Positions 17,836 through 21,951 of a stretch of DNA of 64,000 nucleotides are shown one piece after another. The first letter of the stretch is position 1; each line of letters starts with the position of its first letter. Under the pieces are notes generated by a model that did no database searches, had not been told where the DNA came from, and worked only from the letters and a program-made list of their open reading frames with translations. The translations under genes and the position numbers were made by a program. Location: the NCBI GenBank assembly GCA_963705305.1, contig OY970067.1, positions 4,576,001-4,640,000 of the forward strand, in the 5' to 3' direction. The DNA is from an uncultured Methylomirabilota bacterium. GTDB lineage: Bacteria > Methylomirabilota > Methylomirabilia > Methylomirabilales > 2-02-FULL-66-22.

Positions 17836-19320
17836 TCATTCGCCGGTTGATTCCGGTGACTCCCGCTCCCGGGAATCAAGGAGGAGCGTCTTCCGCTGTG
17901 CAAACGCCCCGGGATCCCGGGGCGTGACGTCACCCCACGCCCCGCGGCCCTGCCCGGTCGCCGAAGCCGGTCCTCGCTCCTCCTCGGATGTCGTGGGGCG
18001 ATTCAGGCAGACCACACCGGCCGCCAGCCGGTCTGCAACGCGAAGGCCCTTCTGCAGATCGCGGGTATAGATGGCCACACAAGAATCGGTCCGCGTTCGG
18101 TTGGCGAGATCGACGGCCTCCTCCGGGGAGCCCACCGCCGCGACAGCGGCCAGCGGTCCAGGGACGTCTTCCTGCGCAAGGCGCATCTTCGCCTGTACAT
18201 CCAAGAAGAGTGTGGCGGGATAGTAGAAGCCTTTGCGATACTCCCCTTCCCGCAGGACCTCCCCCCCGCACACTACCCTGGCGCCTTCCTTCAGCGCCAG
18301 CCGCGTGGATGCGTGCACCCGCTTCACCTGCGCCTCGTTGATCAGCGGGCCGACGCTCGTGTCCGCGAGCGCACCGTCACCGCAACGCAGCGCTTGGGCT
18401 TCCTTGGCCAGTCTCTCTACAAACTCCTTTGCCACCTTGCGATGCACCAGTAGGCGAGAGGACGAGGCGGCGCACTGGCCGGAGGTTCTGAAGGCGCTGC
18501 GGATGGCCCCCATCACGGCCGCCTCCACATCCGCGTCCTCCAGAACCAGAAAGGCGTTCTTGCCTCCCACCGCCAACAGCAGCCGCTTTTGTTCCGCCGC
18601 ACACGCGATGGCCACCTCGCGCCCGACCTCCGCAGATCCGACGAAAGAGACGAGAGAGACCTCGGGATGGCGCACGAGGGGCGCCCCTGCCTCTTCCCCA
18701 ACTCCATGGACGAGCTGGAGAACCGCCGCAGGCAGACCGGCCTCGAGAAAGAGCTCCACCGCGCGCGCGGCCACCATCGGACTATCCTTGGCCGGCTTGA
18801 ATACCACGGTATTCCCGACGACCAGGGCCGAGGCGATGGTGGCGATCGGGATTGCCATGGGCCGAACCCAAGGGGTGATGACGGCGACCACTCCCCGGGC
18901 CACCTGAAGATTGAGCCGCAGACCGCCCGTCGAGTCCAAGGTGGTCGCTTCGCCCGCGAGGTGCTGTCCTAGGACGCCCAGGGAGTTGAGGACACCGACT
19001 GCCTCCTGGACCTCCTCCATCGCTTCCGCGAGAATCTTCCCCGTCTCTCGTGTGATCAGCCGCGCGGTCTCCTCGCACCGCCCCCCCAGGAGCGCCGCAG
19101 CGCGAAACAGGATATCCGCCCGACGAAAGGGCGGGGTCAGTCGCCACGCCGGGAAATTCGCCCTGGCCGCCTCCGCGGCCCTGTCCACGTCCCGATGGTC
19201 CGAACGCGGGAAGCTGCCCAGGATGTCGGTCTTGTTGGCCGGGCTCAAATCGTCGTAGGTCGCACCGCTCGCCGATGCCACCCACTTCCCGTTTATGAAA
19301 TTTTCCGTGGGCTCAGCCAT
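17836..19320 (-). CDS. Aldehyde dehydrogenase-family protein with degenerate catalytic motifs
   Basis: NFINGKWV, GNTVVFKPA, GGKNA, GPLIN are present, but ITPWVRP, LAVGGKN, TSGQCAA and QEDVPGP replace PWNFP, LELGGKN, GQxC and EEIFGP. Confidence 0.85.
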   Translation of the reverse strand: MAEPTENFINGKWVASASGATYDDLSPANKTDILGSFPRSDHRDVDRAAEAARANFPAWRLTPPFRRADILFRAAALLGGRCEETARLITRETGKILAEAMEEVQEAVGVLNSLGVLGQHLAGEATTLDSTGGLRLNLQVARGVVAVITPWVRPMAIPIATIASALVVGNTVVFKPAKDSPMVAARAVELFLEAGLPAAVLQLVHGVGEEAGAPLVRHPEVSLVSFVGSAEVGREVAIACAAEQKRLLLAVGGKNAFLVLEDADVEAAVMGAIRSAFRTSGQCAASSSRLLVHRKVAKEFVERLAKEAQALRCGDGALADTSVGPLINEAQVKRVHASTRLALKEGARVVCGGEVLREGEYRKGFYYPATLFLDVQAKMRLAQEDVPGPLAAVAAVGSPEEAVDLANRTRTDSCVAIYTRDLQKGLRVADRLAAGVVCLNRPTTSEEERGPASATGQGRGAWGDVTPRDPGAFAQRKTLLLDSRERESPESTGE

Positions 19321-19704
19321 CTTTCTTCCGTTCCCCTAAAGACGAAGATCGGCCGGGGAGGGGATCTCCACAATACTCTGGTTCCCACGACGGGAAGCAT
19401 CTCAGCCCCGGTGACACCCGCCGCCCGTCCTTCGGGGGCCACGCTCGGTGAAAAGGAGGGACCCATGGGGAGGCTCCCATGGGCGGTATCGATGAAGGTG
19501 AATCCCGAAGAATCTTTCGAGGGGGAGAATACCACAGCGCTGGACACAGTCGCAATGACGAAGCATGCAACCTGCGAACCAAACTGGACTACAAAAACAT
19601 GTCAAAATACTTTATATTTTCTCTCCAATCCTCATTGAAAACGAGTAAAACAAATTATACATTCTTTCCTTGACGACTCCGATTCATATGAATAATATGA
19701 GTGC

Positions 19705-19728
19705 CGCTGGGGGGTGCCGCCCCCAGCG
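19705..19728. terminator. GC-rich hairpin downstream of the micro-ORFs
   Basis: CGCTGGGGG-GTGCCG-CCCCCAGCG, a 9-bp stem about 15 nt after the stop at 19744. No clear U-tract. Confidence 0.45.
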
Positions 19729-19743
19729 TTCAACTGTCCGTAC

Positions 19744-19797
19744 TTACTTCTTTTTCTTCGGAGCAGCCTTCTTAGCGGGCTTCTTCTTCGTCGCCAC
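19744..19797 (-). CDS. 17-aa lysine-rich micropeptide MATKKKPAKKAAPKKKK
   Basis: SD GGAGGTGA 6 nt before GTG; TAA stop; H1-like PAKK/AAPKK content. Confidence 0.65.
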   Translation of the reverse strand: MATKKKPAKKAAPKKKK

Positions 19798-19855
19798 TAG
19801 AATCACCTCCCTTCTTGTGGCTGTCTACGTTCCACCATACCACCCGGTGATTAGC

Positions 19856-19906
19856 CTACTTCTTCTTTTTCGTGGCTGTCTTCTTCGACCCCTTTTTCTT
19901 CGTCAT
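19856..19906 (-). CDS. 16-aa lysine-rich micropeptide MTKKKGSKKTATKKKK
   Basis: SD AAGGAGGTGA 8 nt before ATG; TAG stop; similar to the adjacent micro-ORF. Confidence 0.65.
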   Translation of the reverse strand: MTKKKGSKKTATKKKK

Positions 19907-19945
19907 CGGGCGGGTCACCTCCTTGTGATCAGTCTCCCAGAGATA

Positions 19946-20399
19946 TCAGGCGAGCAGCGTCATCTGAGGGTTCTTCGCCCGGGTAGCCTCCAACGTGCAT
20001 TCGATGAACCGCTGCGCATCCTTGATCGCGCCCTCCACCTCATAGCGGGAGATAGGTTGACCGGGCTCCTCGAGAATTGTCTGCCACCGGCGCCGCATTC
20101 GATCAAATGCATTGATGAGTGTTCGCCTGTCCGGCCCCAGGATGGCGGCGGTCAACTCCACAACCGTCCGCTGTTGATCCCGCCCCCTGGGACGCAACCC
20201 CTCAACCATGATCACCGCGCGCGCCGCCCGTAACATACCCTGATAGGCAATGGCATACGCCCACTCGCGGTCAATACTGGCATTGGCCCGCGCTGTGGCC
20301 AAGTCCTTCGATGCGCGGGCGACGAGCGCATTGACCACCGCAAAATCGGGTTTGAACGTCCTCCACCAGCCCTTTCTCGCGCAGGTTCTCATACGCCAT
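19946..20399 (-). CDS. HEPN-domain protein with degenerate active site (probable +1 frameshift near 20355)
   Basis: DLATARAN..DREWAYAIAYQGMLRAARA..GLRP...FDRMRRR. N-terminus MAYENLREKGLVEDV (ATG 20399) joins after removing one base. Alternative in-frame ATG at 20392. Confidence 0.75.
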
Positions 20400-20958
20400 C
20401 GTCTCGTCCGATGAGCAGGACGTTCCTGTCGCCCAGGATCTCGGTCAAGAATGGATCCGCCTCTGCCCGTCGTCGATGAAAATCCCCCTCGTCGAAGACG
20501 GTGTAATTGATCTCGCGTCCCAGCTTGGCTTCCAAGCGGGTCACCGCCTCGTTCAATTCCGTCAGGTCCACACCACCCACAACCAAGAGCAAGATAGGGC
20601 CTGGACCCTCCCCGGCGGGATGGGCGTTGGTCGTGTAGAGCCACGCCTGCTGTATGCCCGCCAGCGACTTCAGGGCCTCGGCGATCGCGCCCTGCGCCCC
20701 AACCGTTTTGGCAATGATGGACTTGACCTCGGAATAGATCGCAGCAGTCTTGTTGACAGTGTAATAGCGGAGATTCCCGACCTTCTCGCTGGCGAGCAGT
20801 GTAGCCTTCTCCAGATTGTCCAGTTCCCGTTTGATACCTGAGATGTCGCGGCGGAGATCCCGAGCGATCTGCCTCACGTAGAAGCGATGCTCTGGGTGCG
20901 TGAAAAGGAGTCGCAAGATATCGACCCTGGTCTTTGATGAGAACAACCTTTCGAGCAT
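20389..20958 (-). CDS. Winged-HTH plus minimal nucleotidyltransferase (MNT)-like protein, catalytic motif lost
   Basis: LFSSKTRVDIL..F.HPEHRFYVRQIAR...IKRELDNL...GNLRYY (wHTH); C-terminal LEAKLGREINYTVF typical of this MNT family; the GS...DxD motif is replaced by YTTNAH...GPILL. Confidence 0.8.
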   Translation of the reverse strand: MLERLFSSKTRVDILRLLFTHPEHRFYVRQIARDLRRDISGIKRELDNLEKATLLASEKVGNLRYYTVNKTAAIYSEVKSIIAKTVGAQGAIAEALKSLAGIQQAWLYTTNAHPAGEGPGPILLLVVGGVDLTELNEAVTRLEAKLGREINYTVFDEGDFHRRRAEADPFLTEILGDRNVLLIGRDDGV

Positions 20959-20980
20959 TATTCGTCACCATTCGTTGAGC

Positions 20981-21010
20981 TTTATACATCGACCGTTCTT
21001 CACTTGTCAA
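20981..21010 (-). promoter_or_regulatory. Putative sigma70 promoter of the wHTH-MNT/HEPN operon
   Basis: Minus strand TTGACA-18 nt-TATAAA, 22 nt upstream of the ATG at 20958. Confidence 0.6.
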
Positions 21011-21453
21011 CAAAATTTTTTTGAAAAATTCACAAGCGGCTTCGGTAATCGGTATCCACACCCCCCCTTAACCGAATATACTCAATCCTGGAGAGAGTTA
21101 ACAAAGAAAGCGGGGCTTCATTGCAAACCGGACACCTTGTACGTTCCTGCTTTCTCAGGTCTGTTCCGATGAAAAATCCTCTCTACTTAGCTGTATTCTT
21201 AGGATAGAAAGTGATCGGAGAACAAAAGAGAACAGGAACAGTCTCACCTCTCATGCGGGCCGGAAAATCCAAATTCGCGAGTGCGGGGACAGAACCGTCA
21301 CAGCTCGGTCCAGCCCCGCGACAAACCCGGAGTTTGAGAATAGCGAATCCCGCATCTTGCAGATGGTCCCTCTCGCCCAAACTCCGGGGACATGGGTCAG
21401 GGGAGGCTAGCGATTTGACCCGCCGATCAATTCACCATTATACGACCGGTCCC

Positions 21454-21951
21454 GTGATCGTGCCCGGGCGACTGCGCCTGTGGTGGTGGCTGGGATTCCT
21501 CGCTCGTGCGGCGATGCTCGCCCTCCTCCTCGGCGCACCGGGTGCCAGCCCCGTGCGCGCTTCCCAGCCCCCTGATCTCCGGACCGTCTTCGCCGCCGCG
21601 CTGAATGCCTGGACCTACGGGGCGTACTGGCGCCTCTGGGGCATGGGAACCCGCGAAAGCCGGGAAGCTCTCAGCCAGGACGAGTTCGCGCGTCGGATGG
21701 ACGCCGGGAACGCAGCGCCTGTAGCCGACATGCCTGTGCAGGCGTTCCAAGTGATCTCAATGTCCGGGGATGTGGCGCTGGTCCGGGTGGGGATCCGCTT
21801 GGAAGACCGTCGGGCCCACCGTAAGGCCGCCACGGCTCGCCCATTTCTGATGCGCTTCGAGGAGGGCGCCTGGAAAGTCAACCTGTGGGACTTCGTCGGG
21901 CTGGCCGCATTCTTCCCTCCCCACTATCTTCCGGGGAGACTGCCCCGGTAG
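21454..21951 (+). CDS. Hypothetical exported protein (possible NTF2-like fold)
   Basis: Signal-like hydrophobic stretch ending VRA-SQ; SREALSQDEF...FEEGAWKVNL pattern. Start uncertain. Confidence 0.55.
   Translation: MIVPGRLRLWWWLGFLARAAMLALLLGAPGASPVRASQPPDLRTVFAAALNAWTYGAYWRLWGMGTRESREALSQDEFARRMDAGNAAPVADMPVQAFQVISMSGDVALVRVGIRLEDRRAHRKAATARPFLMRFEEGAWKVNLWDFVGLAAFFPPHYLPGRLPR

Follow-up and report, generated by a model that had tools for sequence, protein, structure and literature searches.

Lysine-rich micropeptide genes predicted across Methylomirabilota as candidate polycations for cellular polyanions

The described bacterial systems closest to the genes studied here are the histone-H1-like proteins with lysine-rich repeats (the KPAA repeats of AlgP and PhaF, chlamydial Hc2, and the PAKKA repeats of mycobacterial Ku and HupB), the tiny basic ribosomal proteins bS22, bL37 and THX, and ScvA of Coxiella burnetii, a peptide of about 30 amino acids (aa) that is rich in Arg and Gln. 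As excerpted in the cited papers, KPAA peptides bind DNA in vitro and the AlgP tail organises and positions polyphosphate granules (PMC9239181), the PAKKA repeats of Ku modulate DNA binding (PMC3553676), Hc2 length differs by lysine-rich pentamers (PMC2848022), and lysine-rich sequences bind polyphosphate non-covalently (PMC12077175, PMC12345225). Excerpts of two further sources describe ScvA as developmentally regulated, small and basic, with chromatin condensation as a speculated role (PMC13568565, citing Heinzen 1996), and bS22 as a tiny, basic, lineage-specific ribosomal protein that was long missed by annotation (PMC10081302). We examined two very short lysine-rich open reading frames (ORFs), pep1 and pep2, which lie in tandem in a 64,000-nucleotide (nt) stretch of DNA from an uncultured Methylomirabilota bacterium (contig OY970067.1, positions 4,576,001 to 4,640,000; this whole stretch is the window, and positions are counted from its first letter). 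Our analysis suggests that pep1 and pep2 are probably translated genes of an unannotated family, with products that would act as polycations for cellular polyanions. The two genes and their Shine-Dalgarno (SD) sites are as follows.

19856..19906, minus strand: pep1, with ATG at 19906..19904, 16 codons and TAG at 19858..19856; peptide MTKKKGSKKTATKKKK
19915..19924, minus strand: SD site of pep1, AAGGAGGTGA, with an 8-nt spacer to the ATG
19744..19797, minus strand: pep2, with GTG at 19797..19795, 17 codons and TAA at 19746..19744; peptide MATKKKPAKKAAPKKKK
19802..19815, minus strand: SD site of pep2, AGAAGGGAGGTGAT, also written (AGAAG)GGAGGTGAT, with 5 nt from GGTGA to the GTG

The window peptides resemble the H1-like tails in composition and in their K-K-x-A/P periodicity (PAKK, AAPKKKK, ATKK), and both appear to be disordered polycations. 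The H1-like sequences, however, are proteins of 100 to 350 aa or tails on a folded domain, whereas the family described here consists of stand-alone products of 10 to 27 aa, often encoded in tandem. Where the H1-like proteins have a long basic repeat domain, the window peptides show two or three repeat-like units (PAKKAAPKKKK) in a whole product of only 16 to 17 aa, and they are not matched by the family hidden Markov models (HMMs) for Hc2 (PF07382/NF038052) or AlgP-type proteins. ScvA is likewise an unusually small, basic, stand-alone bacterial peptide, but it occurs in a single genus only and is linked to a developmental form. The ribosomal proteins bS22, bL37 and THX are also very short, highly basic, lineage-specific and missed by annotation; they differ in having defined conserved sequences that fit rRNA pockets, whereas in the window family composition is conserved and length drifts. 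The targets of "lysine polyphosphate modification," as portrayed in the excerpted sources, bind a polyanion in a Lys-specific, non-covalent and multivalent way, which is the mode proposed for the window peptides, but these targets are Lys-rich stretches within ordinary proteins and not dedicated micropeptide genes. By this comparison, the members of the family are most likely free, minimal, stand-alone versions of the H1-like KPAA/PAKKA tails.

A sequence-only reading of the window had described two tandem lysine-rich ORFs of 16 to 17 aa with near-perfect SD sites and mixed AAG/AAA codons, followed by a 9-bp hairpin, and all of these elements were recovered, with both ORFs on the minus strand and the hairpin at 19728..19705. 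The 3' end of this genome's 16S rRNA reads ...GGATCACCTCCTTTCT, so the pep1 site forms 10 contiguous pairs with it; the pep2 site forms nine pairs, followed by a G.U and four further pairs, and the two sites thus pair with 10 to 14 nt of the 16S 3' end. The start codon of pep2 is GTG rather than ATG, 58 nt separate the two genes, and AAA accounts for two of nine Lys codons in pep1 and one of nine in pep2. The residues M, K, A, T, P, G and S alone make up the peptides, which are almost wholly Lys, Ala, Thr and Pro and have no hydrophobic stretch or core and no signal sequence. When the host genome (5,645,311 bp, with a guanine-plus-cytosine [GC] content of 66%) was scanned for SD-preceded ORFs of 8 to 45 aa with at least 35% Lys, four matches were found in total, two of which were pep1 and pep2; AAGGAGGTGA followed by a start codon occurs 13 times genome-wide. 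The scan's other two matches are SD-led basic micro-ORFs, MACAPKKSAKTGKSCSMGKAKTKKK and MAKGKGVQKRETRKPKKGTAKGSKKK, at C1:110444-110521 (minus strand) and C1:5453658-5453738 (plus strand). Outside the window, a 75-aa ORF lies behind AAAGGAGGTGA at C1:3455121-3455348 (plus strand); its N-terminus is signal-peptide-like, its middle is Pro/Ala/Thr-rich, and residues 43 to 50 of the 50 printed form a Lys-rich stretch (…EKKVTKKK).

The locus is conserved well beyond this genome. The DNA of pep2 and the hairpin matches 17 of 20 same-genus genomes (E <= 3e-12, 72-86% identity), often with a second or third copy upstream, and the pep2 orthologues read MATKK(K)PA(A)KKAAPKKKK. The more diverged of the two copies is pep1, and a first tandem copy is kept in relatives. 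At the order level, SD-led K-rich micro-ORFs are present at 20/20 fetched loci, 19 detected by script and one (L027, with two copies and the G.U SD variant GGGGG) by eye, with one to three tandem copies per locus. Across the phylum, the pattern GGTGA-N3-10-DTG-GCN-NNN-AARAAR-N3-12-AARAAR matched 221/251 Methylomirabilota genomes and the reversed control matched 0; these counts become 216/246 if the unpublished genomes G028, G050, G075, G216 and G217, all five of them matching, are excluded. Looser patterns applied to seven of the apparent misses recovered variants in six, namely MAAKKK.. forms in G026 and G055 and (M)KKKA(A/T)KKKKK(K) in G068-G071, and the seventh, G018, has just a different 27-aa K-rich ORF. 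As judged from these pattern matches, the family is near-universal in Methylomirabilota. The sequence-only reading had made its case depend on frame and SD being kept in relatives, and both are kept across the phylum, together with start and stop. In the low-GC family f7 (GC 52-53%; L121:1363-1461, L122:1372-1461), the first tandem copy is longer, at 29 to 32 aa, with the C-terminus ...GRGC; this C-terminal Cys is not in the window peptides, and the second copy at L040 also has a Cys.

A coding signature was compiled from 74 copies, taken from the relatives' loci and the window and ranging from 11 to 27 aa. The start codon is ATG in 38 copies, GTG in 34 and TTG in 2, the distance from GGTGA to the start is 4 to 8 nt, and the SD consensus is AAAGGAGGTGA or the G.U variant ..GGGGGTGA. 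Lys outnumbers Arg by 622 to 14 in these peptides, whereas the long ORFs of the genome carry 10.0% Arg and 2.1% Lys, which argues for selection on lysine and not merely on positive charge. The Lys codons are AAG in 584 cases and AAA in 38 (94% AAG, compared to about 77% in the long ORFs). Stop codons are TAG in 44 copies and TAA in 30, with TGA in none, whereas TGA closes 59% of the genome's long ORFs; the simplest reason for its absence is that a single-step change converts AAG to TAG and AAA to TAA, and such changes probably set peptide length. The same peptide is encoded by several DNAs that differ at third positions only, as for MAKKKAAKKKKK, with eight copies and six distinct DNAs. Among equal-length pairs in a set of 91 copies, which includes two from the unpublished G050, differences at codon positions 1, 2 and 3 number 822, 849 and 1514, a third-position excess of about 1.8-fold. 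Based on these signatures, we consider it very probable that pep1 and pep2 are real genes and not chance ORFs.

Two elements that may bear on their expression lie beyond the end of pep2.

19705..19728, minus strand: 9-bp GC hairpin with a 6-nt loop, CGCTGGGGG-cggcac-CCCCCAGCG, which closes the tandem array
19670..19698, plus strand: convergent (antisense) sigma70-like promoter, TTGACG-17-TAATAT, with an AT-rich tract upstream

The hairpin has an energy of -20.1 kcal/mol (z = -2.1 compared to shuffles), is almost invariant across 18 genus loci and is unique within the host genome. All arrays examined close with a strong hairpin of -20 to -40 kcal/mol, the stem sequence of which varies by family while pairing is maintained. 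The hairpin of the window is probably a terminator. At the convergent promoter, TTGACG is found in 18/18 genus loci, with TAnnnT 17 to 18 nt further on in about 14/18, and a promoter scan recovered the site in the window and in 3/3 relatives tested. Families f2, f4, f6, f7 and f8 carry an opposite-strand TATGAG/TATAAT/TATGAT hexamer 3 to 7 nt before the hairpin, and no similar antisense promoter was found at Rokubacteriales-type loci in the downstream sequences printed. Its placement suggests that the convergent promoter would start an RNA at the hairpin that runs antisense through pep2 and then pep1. We considered that sense and antisense transcripts of the locus could work in the manner of a type I toxin-antitoxin system, in which an oligo-lysine peptide that is harmful at high dose is checked by the convergent antisense RNA, given that the promoter-like site just past the hairpin is conserved in the genus and that the opposite-strand hexamer recurs in the other families. 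Known type I toxins, however, are hydrophobic, membrane-active peptides, whereas pep1 and pep2 are without hydrophobic residues; nor is the family patchy and mobile, being instead a near-universal core gene that is kept in synteny; and the Rokubacteriales-type loci are without such a promoter in the sequences printed. We therefore regard a toxin-antitoxin pair as very improbable, and antisense control fits the reading of pep1 and pep2 as genes for polycations equally well.

The promoter overlaps a tract of about 140 nt (19560-19700) that is strongly AT-rich against the 66% GC of the genome; the AT-richness of this tract is kept in relatives but its sequence is not. Within the tract, a perfect 12-bp palindrome, ATTCATATGAAT (about 19683-19694), overlaps the spacer of the antisense promoter. 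A conserved short minus-strand transcription unit (19451-19555) separates the AT-rich tract from the aldehyde dehydrogenase gene; it has a weak promoter-like TTGCGA-18-TATTCT inside a conserved GTGTGGTAgTGTCC block and, about 35 nt after that site, a hairpin, GCCCATGGGAGCCTCCCCATGGGT, with a CCCTCCTTTT tail. This unit is predicted to yield a small RNA of about 70 nt or a terminating leader of the aldehyde dehydrogenase and lptCAB genes, and its terminator was found in the window and in 3/3 relatives scanned. On the plus strand, a 187-aa ORF at 19670..20233, the frame antisense to the peptide genes that reads poly-Phe, was rejected because the inter-copy and post-copy spacers differ among relatives by non-multiples of 3, so that its frame is not conserved.

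Immediately upstream of pep1 are two protein-coding genes.

19946..20380, minus strand: 144-aa HEPN-domain protein, PDC-M05B-like (PF05168, E 1.6e-7)
20389..20958, minus strand: 189-aa wHTH protein, PDC-M05A-like, with wHTH alone in Pfam and NCBIfam

The HEPN gene stops about 40 nt before pep1. The pair had been read as wHTH-MNT/HEPN; the wHTH and HEPN assignments held, but an MNT domain was not confirmed in Pfam or NCBIfam. Together the two genes fit the PADLOC candidate defense system PDC-M05 (A, E 2.4e-41 for the 189-aa protein; B, E 7.5e-11 for the 144-aa protein). The gene order in the order-level loci is wHTH, HEPN, peptides, aldehyde dehydrogenase and lptC-lptA-lptB, and of the 21 loci compared (the window and the 20 fetched), 20 have HEPN, 19 have wHTH and 20 have aldehyde dehydrogenase, the misses being contig ends or, for aldehyde dehydrogenase, G039. 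This PDC-M05-like pair is thus a syntenic core locus throughout the order. The HEPN protein has no His and so lacks the Rx4-6H motif; fixed across the order and without His in its HEPN partner, the pair more closely resembles a fixed module without RNase activity than a mobile toxin-antitoxin pair.

The tie between the peptides and this pair that the sequence-only reading had implied holds within the order but not outside it. HEPN homologues from other phyla (L041-L044) are without peptides, and the Rokubacteriales-like families have other neighbors. In those families the peptides are reduced to MAKKKAAKKKK(K) and are encoded in two places: tandem copies immediately follow a wHTH+AbiEi_2 gene and precede recG, and a single copy precedes an EamA transporter gene. 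No HEPN, aldehyde dehydrogenase or lpt genes lie near the 20 Rokubacteriales-type loci. The idea of a single conserved upstream regulator across the phylum was dropped because BLASTP showed no similarity between the 189-aa wHTH protein and the Rokubacteriales wHTH+AbiEi_2 protein. Single-copy units have their own TTGACA-17/18-TAnnnT promoter at 6/6 loci. Tandem loci, including that of the window, start 30 to 60 nt past the upstream stop codon and show no promoter match, and for these reasons the tandem peptide genes are likely co-transcribed with the upstream gene. The conserved unit is therefore the peptide genes themselves, and the HEPN neighborhood is order-level synteny only.

This organization also bears on whether a functional peptide is made at all. 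The ORFs could instead be leader peptides that sense Lys-tRNA, or parts of a conserved RNA on either strand with (AAG)n and SD-like motifs, given that runs of one codon beside a hairpin resemble attenuator leaders, that CACCUCC motifs on the antisense strand match the 16S 3' end exactly, and that the peptides combine very short length with low complexity. Attenuators, however, place a run of regulatory codons and alternative hairpins ahead of a cognate biosynthetic operon, and no conserved linkage of this kind was found: the downstream genes differ wholly by lineage (aldehyde dehydrogenase-lptCAB, recG, the EamA transporter gene, PPX or CHAD), and none of them is a Lys biosynthesis operon. Single-copy units form monocistronic genes that comprise a promoter, an SD, the ORF and a terminator. 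In every compiled copy, a start codon suitably spaced from the SD and a TAG or TAA in frame with it are retained, while third positions differ among the codons for Ala, Thr and Pro. The frame of the long plus-strand ORF is not kept, and Rfam gave no match at E <= 1 on either strand of 19000-21500. A leader or noncoding RNA is the least probable of the explanations that we weighed.

Database searches did not place the peptides in a described family. The 20-aa read-through forms of pep1 and pep2 had no match in Pfam or NCBIfam at E <= 1, ribosomal families included, and relatives of 20 to 148 aa matched nothing there except NCBIfam Hc2 at E 3.1 (a 51-aa Acidobacteriota relative), far below the cut-off. 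Eight K-rich sequences had no exact match in a collection of 15 billion proteins, which was queried with upstream-extended ORFs since the 16- to 17-aa peptides fall under its 20-aa minimum. With a 32-aa relative as the query, the ESM Atlas returned unnamed clusters of 32 to 38 aa at 0.90, with HC2 as the nearest named entry at 0.86; we treat these as weak leads. A full-text literature search, confined to one library of papers, found no account of stand-alone Lys-rich peptide genes of 10 to 20 aa in these phyla. We further considered that the peptides could be ribosomal or ribosome-associated micro-proteins like bS22, bL37 and THX, or chaperones of rRNA or of assembly. They are tiny, very basic, multi-copy and near-universal in a phylum; their expression signals are among the strongest in the genome, as the rarity of AAGGAGGTGA before a start codon indicates; their AAG preference is that expected of highly expressed genes; and tiny, lineage-specific, basic ribosomal proteins do exist, as the excerpted account of bS22 describes (PMC10081302). 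No locus examined sits in a ribosomal or translation operon, though, no ribosomal family matched, and the drift of length and sequence with K/A composition kept is unlike proteins that fit rRNA pockets. We judge a ribosomal role to be improbable.

A different context was observed in Acidobacteriota, where the pattern matched 20/301 sampled genomes (19/300 without the unpublished G278). The loci read were 12 automatically extracted and 14 fetched, G278 not being among the latter. Eight of these genomes have 19- to 20-aa forms (MATKKKAAKKKATKKKAAKK and similar) and five have K-rich repeat proteins of 34 to 159 aa; 5 of the first 12 loci are unrelated N-termini, and L112 (G373) has no K-rich ORF by script. 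A promoter-like TTGACA/TTGACT-17-(T/C)AnnnT sequence was seen by eye upstream of the K-rich ORF in 7/9 loci printed, comprising five micro-ORFs and two longer K-rich ORFs, with none seen in L109, and in the loci first printed the ORFs are followed by GC hairpins that have T-runs. The neighbors of the micro-ORF in the eight genomes are as follows.

G395 and G255: micro-ORF, then convergent CHAD and PPX
G538: PPK1, micro-ORF, then convergent PPX
G518: micro-ORF, PstB, PhoU, then PhoB/PhoR-like genes
G337, G310 and G324: glycosyltransferases and CCA/poly(A) polymerase
G540: PadR and a xanthine-dehydrogenase-type gene

Phosphate or polyphosphate genes thus adjoin the micro-ORF in 4/8 genomes, in three distinct contexts. 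In five loci, the K-rich ORF has an NtrC-type sigma54-dependent response regulator no more than about 2.5 kb away; in L107, L116, L119 and L120 the regulator precedes the ORF and shares its strand, and in L117 it follows the ORF and is encoded on the other strand. A regex for the sigma54 promoter motif found no match upstream of the Acidobacteriota micro-ORFs, where sigma70-type promoter-like sites were seen instead.

These neighbors raise the question of whether the peptides are specific to polyphosphate, as counter-ions or scaffolds of its granules or as regulators of polyphosphate or phosphate metabolism, and are not general nucleic-acid binders. Consistent with such a role are the phosphate genes in half of the genomes with look-alikes, the sigma54 activator upstream in each phosphate-linked context, the preference for Lys over Arg, and the interactions of AlgP and of lysine with polyphosphate documented in excerpts (PMC9239181, PMC12077175). 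However, the other four micro-ORF loci have unrelated neighbors, the four linked genomes may be close kin, and homology of the Acidobacteriota peptides to those of the window is unproven. No linkage to polyphosphate genes was seen at any Methylomirabilota locus examined: in the host genome, about 413 kb separates the peptides (4.596 Mb) from CHAD, PPK1 and PPX (5.009-5.014 Mb), and in G241 and G243 the distance exceeds 500 kb. Furthermore, G020 (98% complete) has the peptides but no PPK1 or CHAD match in a search that did not cover PPK2. We regard polyphosphate specificity as unlikely, although it is the alternative that we take most seriously.

Our preferred explanation remains that the family encodes polycations for cellular polyanions more generally. 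The initiator Met is likely removed, as the next residue is Ala or Thr, and the mature products would be disordered oligocations of roughly 15 to 16 residues with a charge of roughly +9 to +10. Most likely they act electrostatically, as abundant, encoded polycations that would bind and neutralize or condense polyanions, with chromosomal DNA, RNA and ribosomes, and/or polyphosphate as candidates, and they would work like the KPAA/PAKKA/AKKA tails of the histone-H1-like proteins but as free minimal units. Dosage would be set by the tandem copies, by the SD pairing with 10 to 14 nt of the 16S 3' end and by the strong terminator hairpin. In this genus the HEPN gene, which ends 40 nt before the peptide genes, probably shares a transcript with them, and the convergent promoter probably yields an antisense RNA that tunes the peptide genes. 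The sequence-only reading had proposed highly expressed, minimal peptides that bind the nucleoid, RNA or polyphosphate, or else modification substrates; its selected coding genes, strong translation signals and Lys/Ala/Pro/Thr composition like the H1 PAKK/AKKA units are borne out, whereas translation, abundance and the binding target are what we infer from them.

Several points count against this explanation. The third-position excess is modest. The hairpin is without a U-tract, so its terminator role is assumed. The first copy in G010 is frameshifted and hence either dispensable or mis-assembled. The context in the host genome singles out no polyanion, and binding by a 16-mer may be too weak to matter unless the peptide is very abundant. 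Lastly, homology and convergence between the two phyla are not separable because the peptides are of low complexity. A bolder proposal, which we offer only tentatively, is that free oligo-lysine serves Methylomirabilota and some Acidobacteriota as a genetically encoded, dedicated polycation that would condense polyphosphate and/or the nucleoid (or ribosomes) by charge, with copy number and antisense RNA setting the dose.

If this proposal is true, these would be among the shortest conserved protein-coding families, with mature products of about 9 to 16 residues made from promoter-SD-ORF-terminator mini-genes, and would represent a programmable, ribosomally made counterpart of polyamines or protamines. 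The genes are only 33 to 84 nt long, which is why annotation pipelines all miss the family, and conservation of composition alone, with drifting length, evades HMM and clustering methods, a caution for small-ORF discovery. The Acidobacteriota peptides between ppk and ppx offer a testable handle on the building of polyphosphate granules. If translated, the family would be near-universal in a whole phylum that includes the nitrite-dependent methane oxidisers and the large-genome "Rokubacteria," and would show that bacteria can manage polyanions with free, ribosomally made oligo-lysine, whether in place of or alongside long H1-like proteins and polyamines. The peptides would then provide a minimal, synthesisable model for the charge-driven organization of the nucleoid, ribosomes or polyphosphate.

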